Shown here: piece after piece, positions 17,793-45,248 of the stretch
Numbering within the stretch: position 1 is the first letter of the stretch
Layout: every line of letters starts with the position of its first letter
Source: Syntrophales bacterium
Lineage (GTDB): Bacteria > Desulfobacterota > Syntrophia > Syntrophales > Fen-1087
DNA length: 64,000 nt
Assembly: GCA_034678725.1 (NCBI GenBank)
Contig: JAXDBM010000049.1
Span: forward strand, 10,878-74,877
Direction: 5' to 3'
Program-made: the position numbers and the translations under genes
Notes under the pieces: generated by a model
Seen by the model: only the letters and a program-made list of their open reading frames with translations
Told to the model about the DNA's origin: nothing
Databases searched by the model: none

Positions 17793-17861
17793 AGGGGCGA
17801 AAAAGATAATCAATCAGGGTTCAGAAATCGAGTAGGTTTCTGGAGGACTTTCGATGGTCGG

Positions 17862-17900
17862 GCCGCCATCTGACGTAATTGTCGGGTGGCGGCTTTTTTT
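17862..17900 (+). terminator. Strong intrinsic terminator, or attenuator, immediately upstream of small ORFs
   Basis: A 13-bp stem (17862..17874 pairs with 17881..17893, two G-U pairs), a 6-nt loop, then T7 (17894..17900). Confidence 0.7.
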
Positions 17901-18141: not shown

Positions 18142-18252
18142 ATGATAGACTTGAAAGAGTTGCTCTTCCTGTTGGTTTTCATTGCCGTGATCGGAATGCC
18201 GATTATTTTTGGTATCTGGAAGAAAAAAGAGAAAAGCAAGCGCGACAAATGA
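18142..18252 (+). CDS. Candidate small membrane peptide (36 aa, one TM plus a basic tail)
   Basis: ATG 18142 preceded by AGGATTAGGGA. Sequence: MIDLKELLFLLVFIAVIGMPIIFGIWKKKEKSKRDK. Confidence 0.4.
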   Translation: MIDLKELLFLLVFIAVIGMPIIFGIWKKKEKSKRDK

Positions 18253-19085: not shown

Positions 19086-21334
19086 CCCGCACCCCCGATG
19101 CGCAGCGCCAGCCGCTCCCGCTGCCGGATCCGGGCGGCGTCGAGCAGCATTCGGCCGGCCCAGCGGTAGACGTTGAAATCGCGGACGAGCGCCCGCATGC
19201 TGCGCATCCGCTCCCGCTGCTCGAAATCGGGCATGGTGAGCGCCTGGTAGAGGGCTTCGGCGGTCTGTTCGATGTGGTAGGGATTGACGATAAGCGATTC
19301 ATGCAGTTCGTGAGCGGCGCCGGTGAACTGGCTGAGCACGAGCACGCCCTGCTCGTCGTCCCGGGAGGCCACGAACTCCTTCGCCACCAGGTTCATTCCG
19401 TCGTGCAGGCTGGTTACCATGCAGACGTCCGCGGCCCGGTAGAAGCGGTTGACGATCTCCGGTTCGTGGTGTTCGGCCCGAAGGCAGACGGGCCGGTAGG
19501 CGCCCCGCGCGAAACGCCCGTTGATGCGGTCTGCGAGGCTCCGGACCTGTGCCGCGAACATCTGGTAATCCTCGAGCGTGGAGCGGCTCGGGGCGGCAAT
19601 CTGAATGAAGGTGAACCGGCCGATCATTTCCGGATGCGTTTCAAGCAGGTTCTCCACGGCTCGAAAACGCTCGAGAATCCCCTTGGTGTAATCCTGGCGG
19701 TCGACGCCCAGGCCGATGAGACCGTCCTTCGGCAATCCTGTGGACTGCAGAACTTCCCGCCTGCAATCCTGCACGGACGGCTGGGTCTCCTGCCAGGGCG
19801 GCGGCCACTGAATTGAGATGGGATAGTTTTCCACCAGGGTCAGCTTGCCCTGACGGGATATCGTCGACGATTCCGGTTCGATTCGGACTTCCAGGTAGCG
19901 ATCCACGGTTTCGAGAAAATTCCTGCAATGGAACGGGGTGTGGAAGCCCATGATCGTGCTGCCGAGCATGCCCTCCAGGATCTCCTCCCGCCAGGGGCAG
20001 ATGCCGAAGGATTCGGGGTTCGGCCAGGGAATGTGCCAGAACGTGATGATCGTCGCCTTGGGCAGGGCCTTGCGGATCATTTCCGGCAGGAGCGCGAAAT
20101 GGTAGTCCTGCGCCAGCACGACCGGATTTTCGCTGTCCGCTTCCGCTGCCACGGCATCGGCAAATCGCTGGTTGATCGCCTTGTACTGCCGCCAGTCGCT
20201 GGAACGGAAGATCGGCCGCACGTGGGCGATGTGGCAGAGCGGCCAGAGCCCTTCATTGGCAAAGCCGTAGTAATAACCGTCTTCTTCCTCTTTTGTGAGC
20301 CAGATGCGCCGCAGCGTGTACTCCGGATGTTCGGGCGGGATTCCGACCCGGTCGTGCGCGTCCACGGTTTCCCGGTCCGCGCTGCCGCCGCCGTGCGCGA
20401 TCCAGGTTCCCGAGCAGGCCCGCATGACCGGTTCGACGGCAGTAACCAGTCCGCTCGCCGGTCTGGAAACCTCGATCCGTTCCCCGGTTTTGACATGGAT
20501 ATAGGGTTCGCGATTGGAAACGACGAGGATTCTTTCCCCGGCGAGCTGTTTGTGAAGAAGCCTTCGCAGAGAGTCGGGGTTCCAGACGATGGAGATGTCT
20601 TCCGTAAACCGGCGTTCCGCGTCCAGGGTCCGAAACAGGTTTCGCAGGTCTCCCGCGAGGGGCTTCAATTCGGCGGGGGCCGTCTCCACGGAAAACGGTT
20701 TCAGGATTCCTTCGCCGCGCAGCATGGCCCGGACGCCGGCCATCCATCCCCGCCAGCTCAGGTGCGCGACGAATACCGTGATCAGGGAGATGATGACCCC
20801 GAGCACCGTAAAGAAGATGATGATGTATTTGCGGGTGGCGGCGCTCCGGCGCTCGATGTAGCTCATGTCATGCAAAATCACCAGCGAACCGACCCGCACC
20901 CCCTCCCGGTCGTCGGGATTGTCGACGGCATTGTATGAGACATGAACCGGTCCCTGCGGGAGAGGATGAATGGAGGGCGGTTTCTCTTTCGCGGGGTCGG
21001 CGGAAAGGCACGGGATGGATTTCGGAAAAGTCGGGGTATGATAGAGCAGTTTTCCGCCTCCGTTGCAGTAGCCGATGGCAAACAGCCGCTCGTCCTTGAT
21101 GACATTACCAAAAAGAGCGTTGATTTTTGCCCGTTCTCCCCTCTCCAGAAAATCCATAAGAGGCTCCTGCAGGGAATTGGCGATCAGATGCGAGCGGATG
21201 TCCAGGTCCCGGACGAACCACTGCAGGGTCAGCTTGTCCACGAGGGGCACCGCCGCGTAGGCCATCAGGATCAGGGCGATCGCCAATGGAAGGATGAAGC
21301 GCAGCGTCAGGCTCAGGGAACGGAGTGATTTCAA
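19082..21334 (-). CDS. otsA: Trehalose-6-phosphate synthase (GT20) with a ~265-aa N-terminal membrane-anchored extension
   Basis: GT20 core: [32 protein letters not shown]. The N-terminus has two TM segments (aa ~12-32 and ~170-192) flanking a ~135-aa loop. Confidence 0.9.
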
Positions 21335-23371: not shown

Positions 23372-23605
23372 TCATGTCTCGAACACACCCGGCCTGATCA
23401 GCAGTACCGGCACATGGGCATCGTGAAGTACCTTCAACGCCACACTTCCAAACATGACGCGCTTTACCCCTTTGTATCCGTGCGTGGCGATTACGATCAG
23501 GTCGACATGGTTTTCTTTTGCATAATCAATGATTGTGTGAGCTGTTTCGCCTTCCAGAACCTCTGCATTGACTTTCATCCCCTCCGAACGCAACCGGGAT
23601 TGCAT
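23372..23605 (-). pseudogene. Universal stress protein remnant (C-terminal half only, 77 codons)
   Basis: DLIVIATHGYKGVKRVMFGSVALKVLHDAHVPVLLIRP is the USP C-terminal ATP-binding half. The in-frame upstream sequence hits TAA 6 codons above the ATG, next to an A7 run. No N-terminal half is present in any frame. Confidence 0.6.
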
Positions 23606-23658
23606 CGCTGTAAGATACTTTTTTTATGCCGCCGAAACACCCCCTTTCTCGTGGTCGA

Positions 23659-24294
23659 TTAGAAGTTCCTTTTTTGTACGACAACTTCGCTTCCATTCAA
23701 CGTCTTTCTATGGGACGTTCTTTCCTCTTTGCCCGGCAAGTTCAGCTCCGGTGAGAGGACCAGCCGTGGCGGAAGCTCCTGTGCCCCGAGAATATTGACC
23801 AGCAGATCAAGGCCAGCCACTATTTCCTTCAGTTTCATGAGAGTAAGATCCTCCAGCCCGGAAACCAATAAATCCTGGTGGACCTGTGGCGCTTTTGTCA
23901 CTAACGCATTGCCTTCATCGGTCAGCTCCACATGAACAACCCTTCGGTCGCCGGCGGTTCGTACCCGCTTGATCAGTCCCTGCAATTCGAGGCGATTGAG
24001 TATGCCCACGACGGTTGCGGGATGAAGATACATGCGAAGCGCAAGATCCGAAACCCTTACCGAAGAGGATGCCGCAATGGTCTTGATTGCCCACAGCTGT
24101 GGTCCCGTAAGCCCCGTTTTTCGTTTTGCCCTTTTGGACTGTTCGTTGATGACCTGGAAAATGCGTCTAATGTTATCGATGATATCGGATACTAAAGCTG
24201 ATTTTCTTGCCATATTCCCAACTTTCACCCCGATCCGGTACGGGTGGTAAAATTCATCATGCATCCGCACCATCGTTTTCAGTGCACGGGTCAA
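23659..24294 (-). CDS. MarR-family transcriptional regulator
   Basis: Winged-helix region LTGPQLWAIKTIAASSSVRVSDLALRMYLHPATVVGILNRLELQGLIKRVRTAGDRRVVHVELTDEG. The start is ambiguous (24294, or ATG 24213 giving MARKSALV...). Confidence 0.8.
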   Translation of the reverse strand: MTRALKTMVRMHDEFYHPYRIGVKVGNMARKSALVSDIIDNIRRIFQVINEQSKRAKRKTGLTGPQLWAIKTIAASSSVRVSDLALRMYLHPATVVGILNRLELQGLIKRVRTAGDRRVVHVELTDEGNALVTKAPQVHQDLLVSGLEDLTLMKLKEIVAGLDLLVNILGAQELPPRLVLSPELNLPGKEERTSHRKTLNGSEVVVQKRNF

Positions 24295-24351
24295 ATTGTC
24301 TTTTCACTTTGCTTCTCATCCCGACGGATTCATGTCGATCGTCTCTTTTTC

Positions 24352-24365
24352 ATTAGTATACTAAT
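24352..24365. promoter_or_regulatory. Perfect 14-bp palindrome, candidate MarR operator
   Basis: ATTAGTATACTAAT lies in the divergent marR/24601 intergenic region, 18 nt upstream of a TTGACA (24383..24388). Confidence 0.4.
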
Positions 24366-24600
24366 CATTTCTGTAGAAATCAATTGACAAATTACAGCGA
24401 TTTCGAATATTCTACACATGCTGCGTGATGATGTGGACCGCTGCAGATGAAATGTGAAACAATATTCAGCCTGCTGCGACCCGCTCATGAAATGCGTCAT
24501 TTCAATCCGCCTGCACACAATCTAATCATTGCAATGACAGTGAATTGCGCGAAAAGAATGAAAACAAGGGCTATTTTTCGATAAGATGAAGGAGGAAATC

Positions 24601-25296
24601 ATGAAGACCAACATTTTTGTCAGTGCTCTGGTGACGGCCGTTCTCATTGCCATTGCCGGAATCGGCGCCTATTTCATTTTGCCGAGACTGATCCAGGAAA
24701 ACACTTCTGATCTGAATTTACAGATAAAACAGGCAAATGAGCGTCTGCAGAAAATAGAGGGATCTATCGCTGTCTCGGAACAGGCGAGCAAGGAAGGCCA
24801 GTTGAAAATCGGTGCAGATGCCCAAACGATTGTCAATATGGTGAACCGGCAAATTTCGCGCATCGACGCCTTGAGCGTCCAGACCAAGGGAGACATAAAG
24901 CGAATCGACGATGAGATGACCCGACAGAAAAACCGAATCGAGAAAGGCCTCAAGGAACAGGAAGAAACTGCCAAGAAAATCGACGATGCGACGAAGTCTC
25001 TCGCTCAGACCGCTCAGTTTCGAGGACTATTGGCGAATATCAAAAGGCAGATTCTGAAAGTTCGTCTGGAAATCAGCGACAAGAATATCGGCAACGCCAA
25101 GAATGAATTGAATCTGATCGACGCGCGGTTCGGCCAGGCATCGGCCCTGACTTCCGCTCAGGAAAAAACAACCTTGAAAGAATTGCATCAAATGCTGCAG
25201 AAGGTCAGGGCCGATCTGGATACGAATCTCGCCTCGGCAGCCAATCGTCTGGATCTCTTGTGGCACGAATTGGAGAAAGTGCCGGAGCAGCCGTAA
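24601..25296 (+). CDS. Hypothetical membrane-anchored coiled-coil protein
   Basis: ATG 24601 preceded by GGAGG (24591..24595). N-terminal TM segment (IFVSALVTAVLIAIAGIGAYFIL), then a long Q/K/E-rich heptad-like sequence. AT-richer than its surroundings. Confidence 0.6.
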   Translation: MKTNIFVSALVTAVLIAIAGIGAYFILPRLIQENTSDLNLQIKQANERLQKIEGSIAVSEQASKEGQLKIGADAQTIVNMVNRQISRIDALSVQTKGDIKRIDDEMTRQKNRIEKGLKEQEETAKKIDDATKSLAQTAQFRGLLANIKRQILKVRLEISDKNIGNAKNELNLIDARFGQASALTSAQEKTTLKELHQMLQKVRADLDTNLASAANRLDLLWHELEKVPEQP

Positions 25297-26486
25297 TGGA
25301 TGTTCCGCTTCTGTTTTTCATCGCCGGGGGCATCATCCTCGTCGGTTTCCTGGGCGATTATGTTTACGAGAAGATCAAGATTCCTGACGTGCTGGTTCTG
25401 CTCGGAATCGGCATTCTTCTCGGGCCTGTTTTCGGGATGGTCGATCACCAGCGGCTTGCCGAGTTCGCCGAGTATTTCGGGACCTTCGCCCTCATCGTCA
25501 TCCTGTTTGAAGGGGGCATGGACGTCAAAATCAGCATGCTGCTGCGGGAACTCGGAAACGCCACGATTCTCGCGACCCTTTCTTTTGCGTCCACGACGGG
25601 GGCCATCACGGCTTTTCTCTTTTACGTCCAAGGGTGGCAATTCTTCCCAAGCATCATGATGGCCAGCGTTCTGGGCTGCACCAGCGCGGCCATCGTCCTC
25701 CCTATCGTCGCGAAAATGTCCGTCAAGGACGAAACCCGAACCGTCGTCGGCGTCGAATCGGCGGTGAGCGATGTTCTGGCCGTGGTTCTGGTGATTTCCC
25801 TGATTGAATTCACCAAACTCGAAAGCATCGGAATCGAGAAGCCGCTGCGGGCGATCGCCAGCTCATTTTCCGTTGCCATCGTTGCGGGGACGGTTTTCGG
25901 GTTTTTCTGGTTCAAGGTGTTGAATGTCCTGGAAGAACGAAAATATTCCTACATGGTCACGCTGGGCGCCATGCTGATTGTTGTCGCGGCGGTCGATTAT
26001 CTGGGCGGAAGCGGTCCCATCGCGGTTCTCATCTTCGGGATCATTCTCGGCAACTGCGGCGACATCCCCTTTATTCGGGGTTCCGGCCGGTGCGGCCTGA
26101 TCGACGAGACGATCAAGTTCTTTCACGGCGAGGTCACCTTTTTCATTCGAACCTTCTTCTTTGTTTATCTGGGAATGATGATCACCTCCGCGGTCCTGTC
26201 GCCTCGGCACATTGCCGTCAGCCTTGCCTTGCTGTGCATTATCGTTCTCATGCGGTACCTGAGCGTCGAGTTCATGGTGAGAAGTTCCGGAAAAGGAAGG
26301 GAGGAGAAGAGCGCCTTTTTCTACATGCTTCCCCGCGGTCTGGCGACGGCTGTCCTGGCTTCGCTCCCGGTGGCCGCAGGCGTGGAAGGTTCCGAGAATT
26401 TTATCGTCTACGCCGTCAGTGTCATCATTTTAACGAATGTCATCATGACGTTCGGTGTGCTGAACATGGAAAGGAACAATACATGA
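25296..26486 (+). CDS. Cation:proton antiporter (CPA1/CPA2, Na+/H+ exchanger family)
   Basis: ATG 25296 overlaps the upstream stop (TAATG). Polytopic protein, MDVPLLFFIAGGIILVGFLGDYVYEKIKIPDVLVLLGIGILLGP, typical of a Na_H_exchanger N-terminus. Confidence 0.85.
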   Translation: MDVPLLFFIAGGIILVGFLGDYVYEKIKIPDVLVLLGIGILLGPVFGMVDHQRLAEFAEYFGTFALIVILFEGGMDVKISMLLRELGNATILATLSFASTTGAITAFLFYVQGWQFFPSIMMASVLGCTSAAIVLPIVAKMSVKDETRTVVGVESAVSDVLAVVLVISLIEFTKLESIGIEKPLRAIASSFSVAIVAGTVFGFFWFKVLNVLEERKYSYMVTLGAMLIVVAAVDYLGGSGPIAVLIFGIILGNCGDIPFIRGSGRCGLIDETIKFFHGEVTFFIRTFFFVYLGMMITSAVLSPRHIAVSLALLCIIVLMRYLSVEFMVRSSGKGREEKSAFFYMLPRGLATAVLASLPVAAGVEGSENFIVYAVSVIILTNVIMTFGVLNMERNNT

Positions 26487-26926
26487 AGCGGGACCACTTG
26501 ATCATTGCAAGTATAATCATTTCTTTCATATTCCTGGTCGTCTTCAATTTAGGAGGACACGGAAAATCAGCTTCCGCAAATGAAAGGGTTCCTTATCTGA
26601 TCGGCAAATGGAAAGGAGTATGTTCATTAAGTGTTAACACGAATGGCTTCGTTCCGATTAAAGCATCTTTGGTTCTTCATGTATTTGAGCAGATGGACAG
26701 AGACTTTATCGGATATATTGAAGGCTGGACGGATGGCATCCCATATCGAATGGAACTGTCGGGCGCAGTTGACACGCGGGATAGAAACATATTTGCAATC
26801 GATAAGAGCGGAATGATTTACAGCGGATATTTTGTAACCAGTTATCGAATGATCCTGTATGGCTTTGAAAATAAGGCTGAACCCAGAATCATTCAATACA
26901 AACTAAAAAAAATATCCGATCTATGA
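26483..26926 (+). CDS. Hypothetical exported or membrane-anchored protein (147 aa)
   Basis: ATG 26483 overlaps the antiporter stop (ATGA). N-terminal hydrophobic segment (LIIASIIISFIFLVVF). AT-rich codon usage. Confidence 0.55.
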   Translation: MKRDHLIIASIIISFIFLVVFNLGGHGKSASANERVPYLIGKWKGVCSLSVNTNGFVPIKASLVLHVFEQMDRDFIGYIEGWTDGIPYRMELSGAVDTRDRNIFAIDKSGMIYSGYFVTSYRMILYGFENKAEPRIIQYKLKKISDL

Positions 26927-27061
26927 AGGCAATGGCACGAAAACATTATCGGTGATGGCGAATGTGTTGACTCGAACGGTTATGATATGAAAAATTAAAT
27001 AATTAGGTCTTGGGCAGGGTTTTTGTCATAAGGTTAAAAAGCGAGCTGTCACCTCCGACTT

Positions 27062-28477
27062 ATGCAGAAACCCTGCTCGTCTTTTTTCGTTGTCTTTCGG
27101 GCCACGGAAACAACCATGAGAAATAAAATCGTCGAAGAGTCCGTTCTGTTTGTCAGCCTTCTGAAATGGCTCGTTCTGTCTTCCGTTGTCGGGATTACCG
27201 CAGGCGCCGCAACGGCCGCCTTCCTCAAAATCCTTCATGCAAGCATCGCGTTTGCGACCCCTCCGTCCCATGCCTTTTTTCTGCTGCCGGCGGGGCTTTT
27301 CCTGAGCGCCCTGCTGGTGAAATACGTGGCGCGGGAGGCAAAGGGGTACGGAACGGAAAAGGTGATCGAGTCCGTTCACAGGCATTCCGGGAGAATCCGT
27401 GCCGTCGTCGTGCCGGTCAAACTCGCCGCGACCGTCGTCACGGCAGCGGTCGGCGGTTCCGTGGGGCAGGTCGGTCCGAGCGCGCAGATCGGGGGCGGAC
27501 TGGCGTCCGTCCTGGCCGGGTTTCTGAAATTCGACGATAACGATCGGAAGAAACTCGTCATCTGCGGGATCAGTGCCGGATTTTCCGCCGTTCTGGGCGC
27601 ACCGGTGTCCGGCGCCATCTTCGGGGTGGAAGTCCTCTTTGTCGGAACGCTCCTGTATGAGGTTCTTCTGCCTTCTTTCGTCGCGGGCATCATCGGTTAT
27701 CATACGGCTTCCTTCCTCGGCGTCACATACTTTCACTACCCCATTCGCGCGATATCGGCCTTCTCCGACGCCTTTTTCCTCGAAATCATCGTTTCCGGAA
27801 TTTTCTTCGGAATTTGCGCAATCGTTGTCATCGAGACGGTGCACGGTGCCGATCGCCTGTTTGCGAAGGTCAGAATCTGGCAGCCGCTTCAGGCGATCCT
27901 GGGCGGTGTCGTCCTGGCGCTCCTCGCGTCTGTTTTTTCCGCAAAATATCTGGGGCTCGGACTGAACACCATCCAGGAGGCGCTCCAGGGGGTCCGGATG
28001 GTTTCCTATGATTTTTTGATGAAGACGGTCTTTACCGCCATCACCTTCGCTTCCGGCGGGAGCGGCGGGATCATCGCGCCGATTCTGTTTGTCGGAGCGA
28101 CGGCCGGCAGCTTTTTCGGGGACCTGCTGAGCCTGGACCGGGCAACCTTTGCTTCGATCGGAATGGTGAGCGTCCTGGCAGGAGCGGCGAATACGCCCGT
28201 CGCCATGAGCATGCTGGCCATCGAGCTGTTCGGGGGCGAGATCGGCGCCTACGCGGCCGTCGCCTGCGTGATCAGTTTTCTCATCTCCGGGCACCGCAGC
28301 ATTTTTCCGACGCAGGTCATGGCCATGAAAAAATCATCCTCCGTCGATGTGGAACTCGGGAGGGAAGTGGAAAATGTGAAGACGCGGTTCAAATATCGGG
28401 AAAAAAGTTTCATCGGGCAGGGGATCCGGCTGAGGGATAAAATCAGAAGAAGAATCCAAAATGGCGGAGGGGAATGA
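27062..28477 (+). CDS. ClC-family chloride channel/transporter homologue with no CBS domains
   Basis: ClC signature blocks GYGTEK (the GSGIPE position), GGSVGQVGPSAQIGG (the GREGPxxQIG position) and GGIIAPILFVG (the GxFxP position). The start is ambiguous (27062 or 27116). Confidence 0.85.
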   Translation: MQKPCSSFFVVFRATETTMRNKIVEESVLFVSLLKWLVLSSVVGITAGAATAAFLKILHASIAFATPPSHAFFLLPAGLFLSALLVKYVAREAKGYGTEKVIESVHRHSGRIRAVVVPVKLAATVVTAAVGGSVGQVGPSAQIGGGLASVLAGFLKFDDNDRKKLVICGISAGFSAVLGAPVSGAIFGVEVLFVGTLLYEVLLPSFVAGIIGYHTASFLGVTYFHYPIRAISAFSDAFFLEIIVSGIFFGICAIVVIETVHGADRLFAKVRIWQPLQAILGGVVLALLASVFSAKYLGLGLNTIQEALQGVRMVSYDFLMKTVFTAITFASGGSGGIIAPILFVGATAGSFFGDLLSLDRATFASIGMVSVLAGAANTPVAMSMLAIELFGGEIGAYAAVACVISFLISGHRSIFPTQVMAMKKSSSVDVELGREVENVKTRFKYREKSFIGQGIRLRDKIRRRIQNGGGE

Positions 28478-28639
28478 TGCCTCGGCGGAGCGCATTTGCT
28501 TTCCTCCTTCCTGACGGCGTCCGTTGACGGTCCGGATCTGAATCTTCGATCGTTCGGTCGGCATCGGGTTTCCGGAAGAAATATAAGCATGCATCATTCG
28601 GAAGGGATCCTGCGACGGGGGGTGTTGAAAGAAGTCTCG

Positions 28640-30003: not shown

Positions 30004-31173
30004 ATGTCTGAAGCGCTGATCTACTTTGACAATGCCGCCACCACCTTCCCGAAACCCGCGGTAACGATGGAGGCCATGGCGCGCTGCCTGCGCGAAGCGG
30101 GCGGCAGTCCGGGGCGTTCCGGCCACCGTCTTTCCATCGAGGCGGGACGGGTCCTGTTCAACGCGCGGGAAAGCCTGGCCGGGCTGTTCGGCATTTCCGA
30201 CTCGCTCCGGATCATTCTGACAAAAAATGCGACGGAAGCCCTGAATATTGCCATCTGCGGACTGCTGAAGCCGGGCGACCATGTCATCACGTCCGGCATG
30301 GAGCACAATTCGGTCATGCGGCCCCTGCGCGCCCTGGAGCCCGGGGGCGTGAATCTGACCGTGATCTCCTGCTCTCCCGCGGGGGAACTCGACCCTGCGG
30401 ATGTCGCCCGCGCCATCCGGAAGGACACCCGGGCTATCGTCCTGACCCACGCCTCCAATGTCACCGGAACCATCATGCCCGTCGCCGCCGTGGGCCGGAT
30501 CGCCCGGGAGCGGGGTGTCGTATTTTGCGTGGATGCTGCGCAGACCGCGGGCGCCCTTCCCATCGACGTTCAGGCCATGCAGATCGACCTGCTCGCATTC
30601 ACGGGGCACAAGTCCCTGTTCGGCCCGCAGGGAACGGGCGGGCTCTACATGCGGAAGGGCCTTGAAAAGGAGATCGCGCCCATCATGCGGGGAGGCACGG
30701 GAAGCCACTCCGAACTGGAGGAGCAGCCGGATTTCATGCCCGACTGCTACGAATCGGGCACCCCGAACACCGTCGGCATGGCCGGCCTGGATGCCGGGGC
30801 CGGTTTCGTCGCGAACCGGGGGGTCGAAAGCATTCGGGTCCATGAGGAAAGGCTGACCGGGCTCTTTCTGGCGGGTATCGAAAACATCGAAGGGGTAAGG
30901 GTGTACGGACTGAAGGACCCGTCCCGGCAGATGCCCGTCGTTTCGATCGGCATTCGCGGCTTGGACCCCGCGGCGGTCTCGATGGCGCTGGATGAACGTT
31001 TCGGGATCATGACGAGGCCGGGGCTGCACTGCGCCCCCGCGGCGCACAAAACGATCGAAACTTATCCCGCCGGGACGATCCGGTTCAGCTTCGGCTTTTT
31101 CAACACGGAGGAGCAGGTCGGCAGGGCGCTGGAGGCAATCCGCGAACTGGCCGGAAAGAGGATCAGGCCATGA
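30004..31173 (+). CDS. Cysteine desulfurase-family (class V) PLP enzyme
   Basis: ATG 30004. IYFDNAATTFPKP, the PLP lysine in FTGHKSLFGPQGTGGLY, and an active-site Cys in RPGLHCAPAAH. Confidence 0.85.
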   Translation: MSEALIYFDNAATTFPKPAVTMEAMARCLREAGGSPGRSGHRLSIEAGRVLFNARESLAGLFGISDSLRIILTKNATEALNIAICGLLKPGDHVITSGMEHNSVMRPLRALEPGGVNLTVISCSPAGELDPADVARAIRKDTRAIVLTHASNVTGTIMPVAAVGRIARERGVVFCVDAAQTAGALPIDVQAMQIDLLAFTGHKSLFGPQGTGGLYMRKGLEKEIAPIMRGGTGSHSELEEQPDFMPDCYESGTPNTVGMAGLDAGAGFVANRGVESIRVHEERLTGLFLAGIENIEGVRVYGLKDPSRQMPVVSIGIRGLDPAAVSMALDERFGIMTRPGLHCAPAAHKTIETYPAGTIRFSFGFFNTEEQVGRALEAIRELAGKRIRP

Positions 31174-31400
31174 CGCCGGGGGAGGGATTTCTCGTCGTTC
31201 TGTTCGTCTCGGTCAGCCATGCGCTGAAGGCGGAAAAGATTCTGAAGGGCGAAGGCATTCCCTTCAAGCTGATTCCCGTCCCCCGACACCTGAGTTCCGA
31301 CTGCGGTGTCTGCCTGCGGTTCCCGGCCGGTTTCCGGGAAAGGGTCCTTCACGCCCTTTCGGGAAAGGTCGAGATCGAAGGCATTCATTCCCTGGAATAG
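31170..31400 (+). CDS. DUF3343 (putative Se/S carrier-like) small protein
   Basis: ATGA overlap with the desulfurase gene. FLVVLFVSVSHALKAEKILKGEGIPFKLIPVPRHLSSDCGVCLRF matches the DUF3343 pattern, including its conserved Cys. Confidence 0.7.
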   Translation: MTPGEGFLVVLFVSVSHALKAEKILKGEGIPFKLIPVPRHLSSDCGVCLRFPAGFRERVLHALSGKVEIEGIHSLE

Positions 31401-35214: not shown

Positions 35215-36018
35215 TTAATAGGTATAGCTCACCGCGGCGCCGGCGGAAAGCCGGTCGGAATATTGCGCTTCGGCATTCAGGCGAAATCCCCTGGCAAGGG
35301 GCATGTCGATTCCCGCAAATCCTCCGGCCAATGCTTTGTTCGAAAGGGTAACCTTCTCGTCTGCGTGCGCGCGGCCGGAAATCGTGGTGGTTGCATATGC
35401 CTTCGCTTCCGAATAATGGACATAGGGTCCCGCATACACCCTGACGCCGCGGTGAAGGGCGGCCTGAAATCCGACGCCGAGATTCACGTCCCAGAGATTT
35501 CTCACTTTCAGCTCCGCGGTGAACGGGGCGCCGCCGGCGGTTCCGGAGACGCTGTCCGTGAAATAACTGAAATAATAGGTCCCCTGAACGAAAGCGCCCA
35601 TGCCGAATGTTTTGTTGAAGGGGTAGAAGACCTTTGCTCCCAGCGTTCCGAAGAATTTCCAGTTTTCCTCGAAATCGCTTCTGCCTGCGGTGGCTGATCC
35701 GTCCGCCGCACTGAAAGTGTCGAAGATTGTCAAATCCGAGATGCCGATGCGCGCGGATATTTCCCAGATGTTGCTTGCGCCGTAGGCCGCCTGGGAATAG
35801 ATCGCGTTCTGCCTGATTTTGTGTTCCGCGCCGTTCTCGTAGGTGTCTTCGTGATGCCAGTAACCGATGGCGGTGTTCAGGCCGCCGGCCTCTCTGGAGA
35901 CGGTTTGCGGTGCGCCGAACAATCCTGCCGCCGCAGCCGCCTTCGGGGGGACGGCCCAGATGAACAAAGCCGACAGCGCGATGAGCAGAAAATTCCCCGC
36001 CGGAATGGTTTTCTTCAC
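35215..36018 (-). CDS. Outer-membrane beta-barrel protein (267 aa)
   Basis: Signal peptide MKKTIPAGNFLLIALSALFIWAVPPKAAAA, alternating strands, and an aromatic C-terminus ...AAVSYTY. GTG start overlaps the mlaA stop (GTGA). Confidence 0.7.
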   Translation of the reverse strand: MKKTIPAGNFLLIALSALFIWAVPPKAAAAAGLFGAPQTVSREAGGLNTAIGYWHHEDTYENGAEHKIRQNAIYSQAAYGASNIWEISARIGISDLTIFDTFSAADGSATAGRSDFEENWKFFGTLGAKVFYPFNKTFGMGAFVQGTYYFSYFTDSVSGTAGGAPFTAELKVRNLWDVNLGVGFQAALHRGVRVYAGPYVHYSEAKAYATTTISGRAHADEKVTLSNKALAGGFAGIDMPLARGFRLNAEAQYSDRLSAGAAVSYTY

Positions 36019-36935
36019 TGAATTTCCTTCTCCGGCGATGCCGGCCCGTCCGCCGGGGACTGCGCTTCCAGAGATGCGGACTTCGTCCGTTTGGACTTCC
36101 TTGCCTCGACCGACTTCAGGCGGTATTGAATGTAGGCATCCCGAAAGGCCACGTAGGGATCGATGGCCGCATTTTTGAGGGATTCATAATCGCCGATCCG
36201 CAGAGAGGTGGCATTCACCTGCTCGAATACCCCCACCGCCGTACCGGCGTACCAGGGACTCAGGTAGGTGGGGGGATCGAGGAGCCGCTCGCCCACCAGG
36301 CCGACGGTGTCGCGGGGACTGGAGGGTCCGAACACCGGCCAGACCAGATAAAAGCCCTGCCCAACGCCGTAGACGCCCAGCGTCTCACCCAGGTTTGTGT
36401 CCTGAATCTGAAGGTCGATCTCCCTGCCGGAGGAGGGATCCAGGAGCCCCCCGATGCCCCAGATGGTGTTGATGGCGAAACGGCCGGCTTCCGTGGCCGC
36501 GCCGCTGAAATCCGCCTGAAGCAGGCAACTGAGAAAGCGGGCGGGAAATCCCAGATTGGAAAAGAAATTTTTTACGCCGATCCGCGCGGGTTCGGGAACG
36601 ACCGCCTTGTACCCCTGGGCGACGGGTTTGAGCGCCCAGAAATAGAGTTTGTCGTTGAACTCGTGCATGGCCCGGTTGAACGGCTCCAGGGGGTCGGCAA
36701 CTACCAGTTTCTCTTCCCGAACCGCGCCGGCGCCATAAGGGTCCGGAATCTCGTCTTCCCGGTATTCTTCCTCCATGGGATTCGTCGCCGAGACGGCGGA
36801 AGTCGCCGGAATTGGACCGGCTGCGGAGGCAGGCGGAGACGTCGGGGGCGAAGACGGGGGAGAAGCGGCCCAGGAAGCGCCGCACGCGGCCATCAGAAAA
36901 ACAACCAGCACGAACAGCTCGATGTAGGATCTCAT
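36015..36935 (-). CDS. mlaA: MlaA/VacJ-family outer-membrane lipoprotein
   Basis: ATG 36935 with lipobox LMAAC. DPLEPFNRAMHEFNDKLY and NTIWGIGGLLD VacJ motifs. Confidence 0.85.
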   Translation of the reverse strand: MRSYIELFVLVVFLMAACGASWAASPPSSPPTSPPASAAGPIPATSAVSATNPMEEEYREDEIPDPYGAGAVREEKLVVADPLEPFNRAMHEFNDKLYFWALKPVAQGYKAVVPEPARIGVKNFFSNLGFPARFLSCLLQADFSGAATEAGRFAINTIWGIGGLLDPSSGREIDLQIQDTNLGETLGVYGVGQGFYLVWPVFGPSSPRDTVGLVGERLLDPPTYLSPWYAGTAVGVFEQVNATSLRIGDYESLKNAAIDPYVAFRDAYIQYRLKSVEARKSKRTKSASLEAQSPADGPASPEKEIQ

Positions 36936-37020
36936 GTAACCGGCCCCGGGTTTTCGCGCCCGCCGCACCCTGCGCATCGCTGTGCTTGTGCTCCGGCGAT
37001 GCGGGTGAATGATTTTGATC

Positions 37021-37614
37021 TCAGTGCGCCTTGACCTTTTTGCGCAGGATCTCCAGCAATTGATCCGGGGTGTTCCTGGCCAGGATGTCGCTGAACTGCG
37101 TGCGGTAATTCTGGACCAGACTCACATTTTCCACCACGACATCGTATACCTTCCATTTGCCGTCCTTCAGAATCATCCGGTAGAAAATGGGGATTTCCTT
37201 GGAGGACGTCACGATCTTCGACTGAATTTCCGCCTGATTGCCGGAAATCATGTTCTCTTTGTAGAAATCGACTCTTTCGTTCGAGTAGTCCAGAATTTTG
37301 TCGATATACGCTTTTTCCAGGATCTGCTCGAAAAGGTTCACGAATTCCGTGCGCTGCGCGGGGTTGAAATGGTTCCAGTTGCGGGCCAGCGTGCGCTTGG
37401 AAAACTCGATTTCGTCAAACATGTCCCTGTAGATCACTCGCAGCCTGTCTTTTTTGACTTCCTTGGCGGCCGGGCTTTTCAGACCGGGATCCCGAAGCAC
37501 CTCAAGCACTCTCTTGACGTAGCCTTCGGCCGTGGTCATCGGCACCCCGGCATAGGCCGGGACGGACAGCAGAAAAATGATCAGCATGCCCCATATGGCC
37601 ATTCGTTTTCTCAT
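37021..37614 (-). CDS. mlaC: MlaC/Ttg2D-family periplasmic phospholipid-binding protein
   Basis: Signal peptide plus the Tol-tolerance Ttg2 pattern (FDEIEFSKRTLARNWNHFNPAQRTEFVNLFEQIL...YDVVVENVSLVQNYRTQF). Confidence 0.85.
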   Translation of the reverse strand: MRKRMAIWGMLIIFLLSVPAYAGVPMTTAEGYVKRVLEVLRDPGLKSPAAKEVKKDRLRVIYRDMFDEIEFSKRTLARNWNHFNPAQRTEFVNLFEQILEKAYIDKILDYSNERVDFYKENMISGNQAEIQSKIVTSSKEIPIFYRMILKDGKWKVYDVVVENVSLVQNYRTQFSDILARNTPDQLLEILRKKVKAH

Positions 37615-37646: not shown

Positions 37647-38126
37647 TTATTTTGTCTTGTTTTCCTTGTCCGGTTCTTTTTTCACTTCTCCAAAGGCGTA
37701 TTTGCTGATGAGCTGCTCGATATCGACGGCCGCCTGCGTATCGCTGATGACCCCGTTGTCGGCCAGCAGCGTGCCGCCGCCGCCCGGGTCGATGCTGAGA
37801 TACTTGTCGCCGATGAGGCCTTCCGTTTTGATGGAGGCGATGGCGTCGTCGTAGATGTTGACCCCTTTTTTGATCTTCATTTCCACAACCGCCTTCAGGT
37901 TTTCCTGGTCGATGGTGACTCGCTCCACCCGTCCGACTTCGAGGCCCAGGATGCTCACTTTGCTGCCGATCCTCAGACCGGTTACGGTTGTGAACTTGGC
38001 GATCAATGTGTAGGAGCGATCACCGAACAGATCCACCTTGCCCAGCTTCACCGTCATGTATCCGACGCAGATCAGACCGAGGACAACAAAAATGCCGACG
38101 ATGGTCTCCATGTTGTATTTTTTCAT
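37647..38126 (-). CDS. mlaD: MlaD (MCE-domain) inner-membrane protein
   Basis: ATG 38126, 4 nt after the mlaF stop. N-terminal TM segment and the MCE domain (GLRIGSKVSILGLEVGRVERV...IKTEGLIGDKYLSI). Confidence 0.85.
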   Translation of the reverse strand: MKKYNMETIVGIFVVLGLICVGYMTVKLGKVDLFGDRSYTLIAKFTTVTGLRIGSKVSILGLEVGRVERVTIDQENLKAVVEMKIKKGVNIYDDAIASIKTEGLIGDKYLSIDPGGGGTLLADNGVISDTQAAVDIEQLISKYAFGEVKKEPDKENKTK

Positions 38127-38130
38127 GCCT

Positions 38131-39375
38131 TCACTCCCCGGCGGCACATTGGAGCCGCCCGATTTCTTTTTGTTGGGATTTTGCGGAGCCGACAATCGCA
38201 TCAATGTCGGCCATGGACTGGCCCTGGGCGATTCCGGCCAGGATCGCAAGTCCGGCCGCCTCACCGGCAGGCAGCTTGCATGCGACTTGCGGCATGGCGC
38301 GAAGAAACTGCTGCTGAAAATCCTGGACGAAGATCTGCATGATGCTTTCCGTTTCGGCAAGATTCGAATAGGGGATCATCGTGATGATCTCATCGGTGCT
38401 GCGGCGGGTGGAAAATCCGCCGATCTTGCCGAAGTGCTTTTCAATGTACAATCCCATCGACCGCAGAACCTCCTGCGCGGCATCATGTCCGACGCGGGTG
38501 GTGAAAGCGTCGAGCCCGGTCAGCCTGAAAACGACCAGGCAGTAGGATTCTTCCGCCGCCGTGTTTCTCTTCAACTGGATGTGATTGAGCATCTCGAACT
38601 GGCGCTTGGAGTAAAGGCCGGTCAGTTCCATTTGCAGCGCTTCGAGGCTGTTGATGACCTCTTCCTTGAACGGATGGTCGAAATTCTCCAGCTCCGCCGG
38701 CGTCCCCTGAAATACGATCTTGTGCTGATAGAGGGAAAGGATGCGGTTCGAGATGAAATAGACATCCGGGATCTCGTGGCTGACGAGCACGGCGGTAAAG
38801 TTGAATTTTTTCTGATACTGGGCAATCATGCTCAAGATGGCGTTTTTCCGGACGGGGTCCTGGCCGGAAGTCGGTTCGTCAAACAGAACGATCCTGGGAT
38901 CGGTGATCAGGGCGCGCGCCAGCGCGGCTCGTTTCTGCATGCCTCCGGAGAGCTCCGACGGAAAACGGTGGGCGGCGTCGGTCAGCTCCGTCTGCTCGAT
39001 TCTGGCCATCACCCGGCGATCGATTTCCGCTTTCGTCAGACGGGTGGTTTCCTGAAGCGGCATCGCGATATTGTCGTAAACGGTCAGGGAATCGAACAGC
39101 GCGTTCCCCTGGAACATGTAGCTGATCTGGGCGAAGGATTCGGCGATTTCCGGCTTCGTCATTTCGTCGATCGGTTTGCCGCGGAACAGAATCGCCCCAT
39201 CGTCCGGTTTCAGCAGACCGATGATGTGCTTGAGCATCACGCTTTTGCCCGAACCGGACAGGCCGATGATGGTGGTGACCTCTCCCTCGTAGATCCGCAG
39301 ATTGACGCGGTCCAGCACGGTTCGCCGGCCGAAGCGCTTGGTGACATCCTTGAATTCGATGAGGGGCGTTTCCAT
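38131..39375 (-). CDS. mlaF: MlaF-type ABC ATPase fused to a C-terminal degenerate GGDEF-like domain
   Basis: Walker A GLSGSGKS, signature LSGGMQKR and Walker B VLFDEPTSGQD (aa 1-245). Residues ~245-405 align to a GGDEF fold (ELTGLYSKRQF...VGHDAAQEVLR...) with STDEI in place of GG[DE]EF. Confidence 0.85.
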   Translation of the reverse strand: METPLIEFKDVTKRFGRRTVLDRVNLRIYEGEVTTIIGLSGSGKSVMLKHIIGLLKPDDGAILFRGKPIDEMTKPEIAESFAQISYMFQGNALFDSLTVYDNIAMPLQETTRLTKAEIDRRVMARIEQTELTDAAHRFPSELSGGMQKRAALARALITDPRIVLFDEPTSGQDPVRKNAILSMIAQYQKKFNFTAVLVSHEIPDVYFISNRILSLYQHKIVFQGTPAELENFDHPFKEEVINSLEALQMELTGLYSKRQFEMLNHIQLKRNTAAEESYCLVVFRLTGLDAFTTRVGHDAAQEVLRSMGLYIEKHFGKIGGFSTRRSTDEIITMIPYSNLAETESIMQIFVQDFQQQFLRAMPQVACKLPAGEAAGLAILAGIAQGQSMADIDAIVGSAKSQQKEIGRLQCAAGE

Positions 39376-39381
39376 GATTCG

Positions 39382-40251
39382 CTAAATCAAAAGAGAAGTC
39401 ACCACGTAATCCGAGATCAGAATCAGCACGCAGGAAGTGACGACGGCCGACGTCGTCGCCAGGCCGACGGCCTGAGCGCCGCGGCTGTCCTTGCGCAGGT
39501 GCGCGAAATAACCCTGGTAACAGCAGACCGTGGATACGATGATCGCAAAAACGATCGCTTTGACGAAGCCGTTGGTGATGTCGCTCATTGCCACGTAGGC
39601 CTGAACGCTGTGCGAGTAGACGCCGGCATTCAAACCCAGCAGCATGACCCCGGAGATGTAGCCGCCGACGATGCCGATCAGGTCGAACAGTGCCGTCAAC
39701 AGGGGAAAACTGATGATGGCGGCGGTGATTCTGGGGCTGACCAGATACTGGAGCGGGTTGATCCGCATGGTGTGCAGCGCATCGATCTGTTCGCTGATGC
39801 GCTGAATGCCGATCTCCGCCGCGATGGCCGAACCGGCCCGCGCCGTGATCATGATGGCCGTCAGCACCGGCCCCATTTCCATGATCAGCGAAAGAGAAAC
39901 CAGTGAACCGACAGCGCCCTGCGCCCCGAATTTGACGAGGGCATAGTAGGACTGCAGACCCAGGACCATGCCGGTGAACAGGCTGACCAGCATGATGATG
40001 GTCATGGACCTCGCACCGATGTAGTAAACCTGCTTCACGACCTTGGAAAACTGTCTGGGCCGCGGCACATTCCAGAGCGCCGTGAGAAGGAAAATCATTG
40101 CCGCGCCCAGAATGTTGACCCGTTCGATGACCGCTTCCCCGATCCGGGCGAACGGCTTAGCCAGGGAAACGCCCGATCCATTTGGTGCTCCGGCTTCCGG
40201 ACCGTGTTTTTGCTTTTCGGTCAACGCCATGAACGGATATCCCCTTGTCAA
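39382..40251 (-). CDS. mlaE: MlaE permease
   Basis: The MlaE/Ttg2B pattern GAQGAVGSLVSLSLIMEMGPVLTAIMITARAGSAIAAEIGIQRISEQIDAL. The start is ambiguous (40251 or 40230). Confidence 0.85.
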   Translation of the reverse strand: MTRGYPFMALTEKQKHGPEAGAPNGSGVSLAKPFARIGEAVIERVNILGAAMIFLLTALWNVPRPRQFSKVVKQVYYIGARSMTIIMLVSLFTGMVLGLQSYYALVKFGAQGAVGSLVSLSLIMEMGPVLTAIMITARAGSAIAAEIGIQRISEQIDALHTMRINPLQYLVSPRITAAIISFPLLTALFDLIGIVGGYISGVMLLGLNAGVYSHSVQAYVAMSDITNGFVKAIVFAIIVSTVCCYQGYFAHLRKDSRGAQAVGLATTSAVVTSCVLILISDYVVTSLLI

Positions 40252-40439: not shown

Positions 40440-41492
40440 ATGTCCGAAGCGAAAACGTTGCGCCTGACTGAAACGGTTCACGGTTCCGGCTGAGCCTGCA
40501 AAATCGGTCCGGAGGACCTGAACAAAGCGCTGCAGGCATTGCCGCCGATCTCGCACCCGAATCTCATCGTGGGCATGGAGCACGGGGAGGATGCCGGGGT
40601 CTACAAATTGTCCGATGACCTGGCCATCATCCAGACCGTGGATTTTTTCACCCCGATCGTCGACGATCCCTTCACCTTCGGACAGGTGGCGGCCGTCAAC
40701 GCCCTGTCCGATGTGTACGCCATGGGCGGCCGACCGCTCACGGCCATGAACATCATCTGCTTTCCCGTCAGAAAGATGGACCTCTCCATTCTGCAGCAGG
40801 TCCTTCTGGGCGGCCTGAACAAGATGCAGGAGGCCGGCGTTGTCCTTGTGGGCGGGCACAGTGTGGAGGACGACGAACTGAAGTATGGGCTGTCCGTGAC
40901 GGGTGTCATTCATCCCGACAGGGTACTGTTGAACCGGGGCGCCCGGCCCGGCGACCGGCTGATCCTCACGAAGCCGCTGGGGACCGGCATTGTGAGCACG
41001 GCCGTCAAGGGTGGGGTGGCCGACGACGCACTGCTGGCCGGCGCCGTTGCGTGCATGACGACGCTGAACCGGGCCGCGGCCGAACTGGTGGCGCAGACCC
41101 CCGGGATTCACGCCTGCACGGACATCACCGGGTTCGGACTGGTCGGGCACGCCGCTGAAATGATTGAAAACAGCGATGTTTCCATTCGGATCCGGACCGC
41201 GGACGTGCCCTTTTTCCCGGGCATCCGCGAGCTGGTGGAGAGCGGCATCGTCCCCGCGGGGCTGTACCGCAACCGGGATTTCCGTGCGGGCATCGTTGAT
41301 CCGGCCCCCGGATGTCCCTCGTGGCTGGTGGACATCCTTTTCGACCCGCAGACGGCCGGCGGGCTTTTCGTGGCCCTGGCGCCGGAGCGCGCGGACGAAC
41401 TCGTCCGAACGATGCGGTCCCGCGGCCTCGAGCAGGCCGCCGTCGTCGGGGAGGTTCTGGCCGAGCCGAAAGGCCGCATTCTGCTCGTTTGA
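40440..41492 (+). CDS. selD: Selenide, water dikinase (selenophosphate synthetase) with in-frame UGA (Sec) at codon 18
   Basis: ATG 40440 preceded by AAGGGGAG. Translation MSEAKTLRLTETVHGSG-U-ACKIGPEDL... with TGA at 40491..40493, at the position of the catalytic Cys/Sec in the SelD glycine-rich loop. It runs in frame into track ORF 40539..41492 (AIR-synthase-like fold). Confidence 0.9.
40494..40537 (+). promoter_or_regulatory. Candidate bacterial SECIS stem-loop directly 3' of the selD UGA
   Basis: Outer stem GCCUGCA (40494..40500) pairs with UGCAGGC (40531..40537). Inner hairpin GGUCC-GGA-GGACC (40506..40518). Confidence 0.6.
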
Positions 41493-43811: not shown

Positions 43812-45248
43812 GTCAAGAGCAAATAGAGTTGTCCGGTTTTGTAGCACGTGAATTGTCCGCTTTTCTGTTCCGTGCGAAGGGCGACATTTTGGAACAGGAG
43901 GGGAGCGGCGGACGTGCGCTTCCTCAGACGATGAGGCGTTATCCACAACTCATCTCCCGCAGCCTATGTGGAGCGAGGCGGGAGGGGGCTGTGGGTAACG
44001 CCGTCAAGCCGCTTTTTTTATCTCTTTGAGCTTCCCCCGAGGATCATAATCAGCCAGCTTCCTGGGACCATGAAAGAGGGCTATTGACCCATCCAGATAC
44101 CGATGAACTTGGACCCTGACCCTGACGTAATGGCAGCGATATTGGTTTTCAGGGATTTGGAGTTTCTTCCCCTCGAAGCTGACGCAGTTGTCGGCGCTGA
44201 CCGTCCGCTCATCCTGTTCGCAGAGAATGTCATCCAGATGCTCTCCCAGCCAAGGAACAAACGCTGACCCGTCTTCAAGGGCCGGCTGCATGAACTCGGC
44301 GTTGAACGCGGGGAGATACTCCTTTGCCAAATAGCGGTTGGCGGCGTCCATGTCCGTGATCCCATGAAAAGCCAGCTCCTTGACAAGCCGGTCCTGGTGA
44401 GTCTCAAAAGCCCTTTCGCTACGTCCTCGCGCCTCCGGGGAGTAGGCCGCAATCATCTGAATCCCCAGGTGTTTCATCGCCCGGCCAAACTGGGTCAGCT
44501 GCGTCTTGCTGACCTTCCCCCCTTCCTTGGGTGTGTACCAGTAATGACTTCCACGGTCGGTGTACAAAGAACTGAACAACCCCTTTTGAACAATCACCTC
44601 CCGCACCCCCTGAAAACTGCTGCTCGTCCCTTCCTCGCCAACAAAGAACATCGAATAATGCTCACTCGTTGCGTCATCCATCGTCACGATTAGATCCCAC
44701 TGCTTCCCGGAAACCCATTCGTGTCTGCTGCCGTCTTGATGCAGCATCATACCGGGAAAGTGAGCCCGCTCTCTGCGCTTGCGATGAACTCCCCGCTTGG
44801 ATGACTTCATAACCAATCCCTTTGTCTGGAGCGTGTTCTTCACCCAGGTGTAACTGCGCCCACCCCCATCTCGCCGATACCACCTGTAAAAGTGCTTCAC
44901 ATTCCAGCCCCGGTGACCACGATGATACAGGTCCGTAACCGCCATCACCTCGTCCACAGGCGCACGACGAAATGAAGCCTGCCTCAAACGCTTGTCCGAC
45001 ACACCCGCTATCCCATCCTCCTCGTATCGATCAATGTATCGCCGAAACGTCCGATCGCTTACCCCCAAAACCAGAGCCGCCGTCGCCTGCGTCAACCGAC
45101 CCTCGTTCCATCCCAAATATACCTCCTCAAATCGCATCTTCCGGTTCTCCTCTAGCCACTCTGTCCGCCTCATCGGTCACCTCCCTAGGCAACCTTATCA
45201 AACCGGACAGATCATGTGCTATAAACCGGACATATCATTTGTTACTGA
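43812..45248 (-). mobile_element. Intact 1437-bp insertion sequence (DDE/rve transposase; IS1202/ISNCY-like, or IS481-like)
   Basis: Imperfect ~50-bp terminal inverted repeats: GTCAAGAGCAAATAGAGTTGTCCGGTTTTGTAGCAC... versus the reverse complement GTCAGTAACAAATGATATGTCCGGTTTATAGCAC... Each carries two TGTCCG(G/C)TTT motifs. One transposase ORF, flanked by an 18-bp direct repeat. Confidence 0.8.
44004..45173 (-). CDS. IS transposase (N-terminal HTH plus rve-type DDE integrase core)
   Basis: 389 aa. HTH region LTQATAALVLGVSDRTFRRYIDRY; DDE core blocks MLHQDGSRHEW, DLIVTMDDATS, LYTDRGSHY and SPEARGRSER. Confidence 0.85.
   Translation of the reverse strand: MRRTEWLEENRKMRFEEVYLGWNEGRLTQATAALVLGVSDRTFRRYIDRYEEDGIAGVSDKRLRQASFRRAPVDEVMAVTDLYHRGHRGWNVKHFYRWYRRDGGGRSYTWVKNTLQTKGLVMKSSKRGVHRKRRERAHFPGMMLHQDGSRHEWVSGKQWDLIVTMDDATSEHYSMFFVGEEGTSSSFQGVREVIVQKGLFSSLYTDRGSHYWYTPKEGGKVSKTQLTQFGRAMKHLGIQMIAAYSPEARGRSERAFETHQDRLVKELAFHGITDMDAANRYLAKEYLPAFNAEFMQPALEDGSAFVPWLGEHLDDILCEQDERTVSADNCVSFEGKKLQIPENQYRCHYVRVRVQVHRYLDGSIALFHGPRKLADYDPRGKLKEIKKAA

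Follow-up and report, generated by a model that had tools for sequence, protein, structure and literature searches.

Regulation of the Mla phospholipid-transport system is poorly understood and the direction of its transport is disputed; to our knowledge, MlaB in Proteobacteria is its sole known regulator. In Escherichia coli, MlaF is an ATP-binding cassette (ABC) ATPase of 269 amino acids (aa), and its C-terminal extension of approximately 20 residues wraps around the neighbouring MlaF and touches MlaB, a reciprocal handshake that promotes dimerization of the nucleotide-binding domains (NBDs) (Kolich et al. 2020, PMC7367683). We analyzed a stretch of 64,000 nucleotides (nt) from a Syntrophales bacterium (GenBank assembly GCA_034678725.1, contig JAXDBM010000049.1, positions 10,878 to 74,877 of the forward strand), hereafter the window, in which an mla operon encodes an MlaF homologue of 414 aa. 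This protein resembles E. coli K-12 MlaF over its ABC domain (38% identity over aa 5–235), and MlaE, MlaD, MlaC and MlaA are encoded alongside it; however, the short E. coli tail is replaced here by a GGDEF-fold domain of approximately 165 residues, and no MlaB was found nearby. We lean, by a modest degree, towards the reading that two such domains, which appear to be catalytically dead, pair beneath the MlaF dimer as a built-in dimerizing or regulatory module of the ATPase. An MlaF carrying a conserved and selected domain would be a natural experiment on how an ATPase dimer is stabilized or controlled, and it gives catalytically dead GGDEF domains a new partner. The host organisms are uncultured or slow-growing syntrophs.

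Each half of this architecture has well-known counterparts. MalK, MetN (C2 domain), ModC, CysA and OpuA (a CBS pair) also carry an extra domain directly after the NBD, and by analogy with the MalK, MetN and ModC type, pairing under the NBDs and tuning of the ATPase would be expected in the window protein. The extra domain here is nevertheless of the GGDEF type, not TOBE/ACT-like or CBS, and the transporter is of the MCE/Mla type. A MetNI analogy for the regulation of MlaF has been drawn previously (PMC7367683). LapD, PelD, PopA, PdeA and GdpP/YybT likewise retain a catalytically dead GGDEF fold as a regulatory module. Degenerate GGDEF proteins that bind cyclic di-GMP (c-di-GMP) use an RxxD motif, or the EAL domain in the case of LapD, and the GGDEF domain of PdeA senses GTP and retains the GTP-binding residues; in the window domain, by contrast, both nucleotide sites are gone. 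We know of no degenerate GGDEF domain of the LapD, PelD, PopA, PdeA or GdpP type that is fused to an ABC ATPase. An earlier interpretation of this DNA, made from the letters and their open reading frames (ORFs) and hereafter called the sequence-only reading, knew of no description of the architecture. With respect to papers this stood, as full-text literature searches turned up neither the fusion nor any other case of an Mla/MCE ATPase with an extra domain; with respect to databases it did not, as hundreds of entries exist, some of which are named "diguanylate cyclase". That automatic label is wrong and would inflate the counts of c-di-GMP enzymes in Smithella/Syntrophales genomes. Dead GGDEF regulators and ABC C-terminal regulatory domains are each well known, and it is their combination that was not found described.

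The fusion gene and its two parts are located as follows:

38131..39375, minus strand: mlaF-dGGDEF fusion gene, 414 aa plus stop (ORF; Pfam ABC_tran and GGDEF)
38674..39375, minus strand: ABC nucleotide-binding domain, aa 1–234 (Pfam ABC_tran, E 8.5e-34)
38134..38673, minus strand: C-terminal module, aa 235–414 (Pfam, PDB profile search, structure model and fold search)

The ABC motifs were complete, comprising Walker A (GLSGSGKS, 38–45), the Q-loop residue Q89, the signature LSGGMQKR (142–149), Walker B (IVLFDE, with the catalytic Glu E167) and the H-loop residue H200, and the motif residues were invariant across 37 relatives (alignment A3). Judged by these residues, the ATPase of the fusion protein should be active. 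The top NCBIfam model was MlaF (PRK11831) at 193.6 bits, which is under the equivalog cut-off of 441; on the strength of synteny and best match, we regard the fusion protein as an MlaF orthologue, even though the curated cut-off was not reached.

The C-terminal module was composed of the last ABC/stalk helix (approximately 235–252), an LTGL turn and a degenerate GGDEF-fold domain (approximately 250–411). Pfam PF00990 matched aa 251–369 at 33.9 bits against a gathering cut-off of 23.8 (E 3.2e-8); the domain missed the cut-off of the GGDEF model TIGR00254 (30.2 vs 37.4 bits), and the NCBIfam LapD model matched the fusion protein with E 4.9e-6. When aa 235–414 were searched with phmmer against 1.84 billion representative proteins, 146 matches were obtained at E ≤1e-3, first the protein's own family and then true cyclases with intact GGDEF or GGEEF, the latter being reached at whole-library E values of 1e-6 to 1e-3. 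A profile built from 23 diverse family members (A1) and run against PDB sequences matched GGDEF domains almost exclusively, and exclusively so at E <0.03, with DgcR (6zxb, E 8e-11), SadC, LapD (3pjw, 2.6e-9) and PleD (1.5e-6) among the best matches. An AlphaFold model of the domain on the A1 alignment (mean predicted local distance difference test (pLDDT) score 86.5, core >90) adopted the GGDEF fold, with its beta-alpha-alpha-beta-beta-alpha-beta core. All 50 of the 50 best Foldseek matches of this model in PDB were GGDEF domains (probability 1.00), at TM-scores of about 0.5–0.56 that are normalized to a query including a low-confidence N-terminal helix. STAS was not among the Pfam matches of the fusion protein at E ≤1, and the fold matched GGDEF alone. 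Because the Pfam, phmmer, PDB profile and fold searches agreed, the extra domain was assigned to GGDEF; that is, the approximately 170 extra residues are confirmed as a GGDEF-fold domain homologous to diguanylate cyclases. The sequence-only reading was therefore correct in reporting a 414-aa mlaF homologue and, by hand alignment, a resemblance to GGDEF domains, which exceeds chance by a wide margin. The motifs it quoted were placed at aa 250–260 (ELTGLYSKRQF), 281–291 (VVFRLTGLDAF), 295–305 (VGHDAAQEVLR), 326–330 (STDEI) and 376–385 (LAILAGIAQG), and the hand alignment of the catalytic positions was reproduced by MAFFT and HMMER.

The domain shares its fold, its sequence homology and the helix and LTGL turn ahead of it with the cyclases PleD, WspR, DgcR and DosC. 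It differs from them in that the signature reads STDEI, the metal, guanine and RxxD sites are replaced, and helix alpha3 is longer in the model. We aligned 97 family C-termini (from 80 genomic loci and metagenomic proteins) with 11 canonical cyclases using MAFFT, and mapped the residues on the position numbers and roles in PleD. Three segments were altered:

38503..38535, minus strand: VVFRLTGLDAF, aa 281–291, strand beta1 and former metal/phosphate loop, canonically D-x-D-x-F-K (MAFFT alignment)
38404..38436, minus strand: HFGKIGGFSTR, aa 314–324, family-specific motif over the RxxD I-site position (column counts; invariant in A3)
38386..38400, minus strand: STDEI, aa 326–330, in place of GG[D/E]EF (column counts in 97 members)

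The individual positions compared as follows:

PleD D327 (metal-binding Asp): R284 in the window; commonest in the family T (37), S (33), K (7) and R (5), Asp not being among these four
PleD D329: T286 in the window; variable in the family
PleD K332: D289 in the window; D (56) or N (28) in the family, D/N/E together 90/97
PleD N335 (guanine-binding): T292 in the window; I (50) or V (15), also T, in the family
PleD D344 (guanine-binding): Q301 in the window; Q in 86/97
PleD G368 and G369: S326 and T327 in the window; variable in the family (S/K/R/N and T/S/I/A)
PleD E370 (metal ligand): D328 in the window; D/N/G/H in the family
I-site RxxD position, five residues ahead of the signature: KIGG in the window; family consensus AIGG, the two Gly in 94–95/97

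In the signature region, retention was limited to E329 (88/97) and, ahead of it, R324 (97/97). Within HFGKIGGFSTR, F315 and R324 were found in 97/97, G320 and S322 in 95/97 and G319 in 94/97. The residues that define the fold were kept (LTGL, GH, P335, G381 and A398), together with R324, E329 and K403 (89/97), and a further set was conserved specifically in this family, namely S256, F283, A300, Q301, G308, F315, G319, G320, S322, T332, E341, F349, A380, A383, G385, Q402, I405 and C410. This family-specific conservation indicates that the domain was remodelled with a retained function and is not decaying.

Judged by these replacements, the domain is predicted to be unable to act as a cyclase, and both the synthesis and the canonical binding of c-di-GMP appear to be ruled out. 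We give next to no credence to the idea that the transporter is coupled to an active diguanylate cyclase, nor to its alternative, an artefact or decaying pseudodomain. The automatic name "diguanylate cyclase" on some database entries would speak for the former, but by the residue list above the GG pair is missing family-wide, as are the two metal and the two guanine ligands, and this candidate was rejected. A canonical I-site c-di-GMP receptor of the PelD or PopA type was also rejected, as the I-site position reads AIGG in the family. The supposition of the sequence-only reading that the domain is catalytically dead thus agrees with the replacement of the metal, guanine and GG residues in 97 members, whereas its proposal of a second-messenger-type input is unlikely in the canonical forms, given that the GTP/A-site residues and the c-di-GMP I-site are replaced family-wide. 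Its statement that no RxxD I-site is visible holds for the I-site position; however, a literal R-x-x-D does exist (RSTD, aa 325–328), which lies on the degenerate signature, off the I-site, and is not conserved in the family.

Ligand, metal or redox sensing is what we rate as the main rival. In one form, the remodelled active site would bind a small molecule, either a non-canonically bound nucleotide such as ATP or (p)ppGpp or a non-nucleotide, and changed pairing would tune the MlaF ATPase up or down as a ligand-gated brake. Gating of this kind has parallels in methionine on MetN and cyclic di-AMP on the CBS domains of OpuA, and the degenerate GGDEF domain of GdpP/YybT binds ATP. The substitutions at the old A-site are conserved and not random (Q301 in 86/97, S256 in 95/97, D/N/E289 in 90/97), R324, E329 and K403 are retained, and the domain is under purifying selection, all of which would suit such a brake; moreover, the PleD entry with ppGpp (9g85) was among the fold matches, indicating that other nucleotides can be bound by GGDEF-containing proteins. 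Even so, we consider the brake possible but unlikely: the metal ligands are gone (T/S/K/R at the D327 equivalent and D/N/G/H at the E370 equivalent), the base-recognition residues are gone (I/V/T at the N335 equivalent and Q at the D344 equivalent), and no known ligand-binding motif was recognized in the domain. We also observed that C410 in the last strand is Cys in 91/97 family members and that a second Cys (column 366 or 373), 3–22 residues ahead of the conserved AG motif, is present in 91/97; both are mostly missing from canonical cyclases. One possibility is that the Cys pair forms a disulfide or acts as a redox or metal site, which might be shared between the subunits of a dimer.

We then assessed how widely the fusion occurs. 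The 120 best protein matches were 403–430 aa long and 70–95% identical, came from metagenome-assembled genomes (MAGs) of Smithella, Smithellaceae or Syntrophaceae, and mostly carried both PF00005 and PF00990; some of them were auto-named "diguanylate cyclase". When one genome per GTDB species was scanned with an alignment of the domain alone (A2), at least 325 species genomes proved to encode a relative of the domain, and nearly all of the best 80 of these 325 carried a Syntrophales, Smithella, Syntrophaceae or unclassified-deltaproteobacteria label. The order mlaE, fusion, mlaD, mlaC, mlaA and outer-membrane protein gene was common to 80/80 loci as far as the contigs reach. Identity to the window protein across these loci was 78–96% in the ABC half and 46–92% in the extra domain, the nearest relative of the window organism being an uncultured Syntrophaceae MAG with a domain 92% identical (locus L001). 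The ratio of nonsynonymous to synonymous substitution rates (dN/dS, Nei-Gojobori) was 0.07–0.12 for the ABC half and 0.17–0.28 for the extra domain, which is thus under purifying selection. We rejected the possibility that the fusion is a pseudodomain or a product of faulty assembly or annotation, given its presence in at least 325 species genomes across many independent assemblies, the conserved synteny, the constant length of 403–430 aa among the 120 best matches and a dN/dS <0.3, well below 1.

More distant fusions, with domains 27–40% identical, were found in proteins of 417 aa (P0279, Syntrophobacterales MAG) and 406 aa (P0281). A further distant fusion of 409 aa (P0282, Syntrophorhabdales-labelled MAG) has a GGDEF domain below Pfam detection, and the P0282 loci examined again had the mlaE-F-D-C-A context. 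The fusion is fixed in Syntrophales/Smithella and some neighbouring orders. The same degenerate-GGDEF subtype, marked by the motifs ILAGIGQGQP... and ...GHEAAQ, was also seen behind a non-ABC N-terminal region in a protein of 356 aa with no Pfam match (P0260) and behind an N-terminal T5orf172 domain in a protein of 243 aa (P0172).

The point of attachment indicates what the domain has displaced. The alignment with E. coli MlaF ended at P238, which corresponds to P235 in the window protein, and the next E. coli helix, RVRQFLDG, corresponds to FKEEVINSLEAL in the window protein, where it leads directly into the GGDEF LTGL turn (helices H237–252, turn, H257–268 in a full-length model of mean pLDDT 62.8). 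Because the alignment ends at aa 235, the domain takes the place of the C-terminal extension, and not that of MlaB. GGDEF domains function in pairs whose geometry is set by the preceding helices, and the two NBD C-termini of an ABC transporter adjoin each other; the dead GGDEF domains would therefore most likely pair under the MlaF dimer. We propose that the MlaF of this lineage acquired a GGDEF-fold domain right after its last ABC helix, and that the resulting pair would be mechanically coupled to the opening and closing of the ATPase dimer. The pair would be comparable to the regulatory domains at the C-termini of MalK, MetN or ModC, and it would take over dimer stabilization, which in E. 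coli falls to the C-terminal extension with help from MlaB.

Several points weigh against this proposal. The monomer model of the full-length protein, built on a shallow alignment of sequences >70% identical, was of low quality (pLDDT 62.8) and is uninformative on the domain arrangement; contacts between the two domains or with the ABC dimer are suggested by analogy. The conserved polar residues R324, E329, Q301 and K403 suit a ligand pocket as well as an interface. In addition, the occurrence of P0260 and P0172 means that the domain subtype is not exclusive to MlaF and hence not exclusively an ABC accessory. A bolder extension, which we find rather unlikely, is that the paired dead GGDEF domains are a new type of sensor on a lipid transporter, gating outer-membrane phospholipid trafficking in strictly anaerobic syntrophs. 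Such a sensor would read its signal, whether a metabolite, an alternative nucleotide or redox/metal status, through either the remodelled pocket (S256, D/N289, Q301, R324, E329 and K403) or the Cys pair (C410 with 366/373). If true, this would be a regulatory principle new to any Mla/MCE system.

An adaptor function was considered as well, in which the dead GGDEF domain would offer another protein, such as an enzyme of lipid metabolism or a regulator, a place to dock on the transporter. Degenerate GGDEF domains are used as docking platforms by some signalling proteins, and the conserved family-specific surface motif HF..IGGFSTR would fit this function, as would the presence of the domain subtype behind unrelated N-terminal regions and, in one relative, of the phospholipid-synthesis genes CTP_transf_like and CDP-OH_P_transf directly downstream of the operon. 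However, the only conserved extra gene that goes with the operon is the outer-membrane protein gene, and we judge an adaptor improbable.

The remaining genes of the operon surround the fusion gene on the same strand:

39382..40251, minus strand: mlaE, permease of the Mla ABC transporter (Pfam PF02405 MlaE, E 6.4e-76)
37647..38126, minus strand: mlaD, short MCE protein, 159 aa (Pfam PF02470 MlaD, E 4.6e-19)
37021..37614, minus strand: mlaC, periplasmic lipid chaperone (Pfam PF05494, E 1.1e-43)
36015..36977, minus strand: mlaA, outer-membrane lipoprotein (Pfam PF04333, E 2.6e-68)
35215..36018, minus strand: sixth operon gene, putative outer-membrane beta-barrel protein, 267 aa (N-terminus signal-peptide-like, C-terminal ...SYTY)

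The operon is a complete MlaE-F-D-C-A phospholipid-transport system. The mlaE stop and the downstream mlaF start are separated by 6 nt, the mlaD start was set at MKKYNMETIV, 4 nt past the mlaF stop, and the sixth gene overlaps the mlaA stop by 4 nt, so that spacing inside the operon ranges from this 4-nt overlap up to 43 nt. The sixth gene lies 3' of mlaA in most of the 80 loci with a long enough contig, and its protein gave no match in Pfam and PDB-sequence searches. In E. coli, the partner porins of MlaA are OmpC/F; the sixth-gene product may be a dedicated beta-barrel partner of MlaA.

As gaps of 43 nt at most leave no room for a STAS gene or any further gene inside the operon, and Pfam identifies the neighbours as MlaE, MlaD, MlaC and MlaA, the sequence-only reading was borne out in describing an operon that lacks MlaB. 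It had also proposed that the fused domain may replace MlaB. In a fuller form of this idea, the domain would dock on the MlaF helical subdomain, do the work of the STAS protein MlaB, and have evolved because MlaB is missing. The searches for MlaB are in line with this idea. In five annotated loci, drawn from two clades, no STAS Pfam family was present among the called genes up to 10 kb on either side of the fusion gene; the operon left no room for another gene in the loci examined, and no STAS was found by Pfam on ten small predicted window genes. A phmmer search with E. coli MlaB, a single divergent query and hence a weak probe, found nothing among 9,982 ORFs of at least 60 aa from the window and 85 loci. 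In E. coli, moreover, MlaB both stabilizes and regulates MlaF (PMC7367683).

Nevertheless, we hold a surrogate of MlaB to be very unlikely. A published survey found MlaA, B and C to be "present mostly within Proteobacteria" (Grasekamp et al. 2023, PMC10665443), and in the excerpt of its supplementary table on which we draw, MlaB is scored 0 for every listed deltaproteobacterium. Among them are some that do have MlaA, MlaC and MlaDEF, for instance Geobacter sulfurreducens, Desulfovibrio vulgaris, Desulfomicrobium, Pelobacter and Desulfocapsa. In several of these, the Mla accession numbers in the same excerpt are consecutive, leaving no gap for an extra gene. In Veillonella, MlaEFD is reported to be functional without MlaB, and its MlaF has a short tail alone (PMC10665443). 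The fusion was narrower than the lack of MlaB scored in that excerpt, being found in Syntrophales/Smithella and a few Syntrophobacterales- or Syntrophorhabdales-labelled MAGs. Judged by the MlaB scores, most MlaB-less systems thus probably lack the fused domain and apparently do not need it. As MlaB-less systems are, on the listed entries, far wider than the fusion, the absence of MlaB does not call for the fusion as an explanation, and this absence at the operon of the window is not distinctive. Furthermore, the domain is unrelated to STAS in fold or sequence, and its attachment point is the position of the C-terminal extension. The STAS searches covered the loci, and a STAS gene may be encoded elsewhere in the genome.

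In the neighbourhood of the mla operon, thrC occupies the downstream position at which a Smithella-like relative (loci L084/L085, 15025-16190) has CTP_transf_like, CDP-OH_P_transf and KAS III-type genes just 3' of its mla operon. The region is flanked by genes for a Se/S-carrier-like protein (31170-31400, plus strand; PF11823, E 1e-21) and a SelD-like protein of the AIR-synthase family (40539-41492, plus strand), and SelD and a DHH-family gene were located near the mla operon in many related loci, which suggests that selenium metabolism genes reside near this operon. Farther along, an ORF of 389 aa (44004-45173, minus strand) has N-terminal HTH_29/23/28 domains and a transposase-like sequence and lies inside a 2-kb block of strongly negative GC skew (-0.138); this region is probably an insertion sequence.

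Elsewhere in the window, an Rfam nhaA-I riboswitch motif was detected at 17817-17871 on the plus strand (49.2 bits vs a gathering score of 37). Shortly upstream of the motif is a P-type cation ATPase gene (14777-17635), and small hydrophobic ORFs follow downstream at 17927-18100 (57 aa) and 18142-18252 (36 aa); trehalose-phosphate synthase and phosphatase genes are nearby (18315-21334, minus strand). A stretch of lower GC content at 23400-28500 (0.50-0.52 vs about 0.62 elsewhere) contains genes for a MarR-family regulator (23659-24294), a Na+/H+ exchanger (25260-26486) and a ClC chloride channel (27062-28477), and may be a horizontally acquired ion-homeostasis island.

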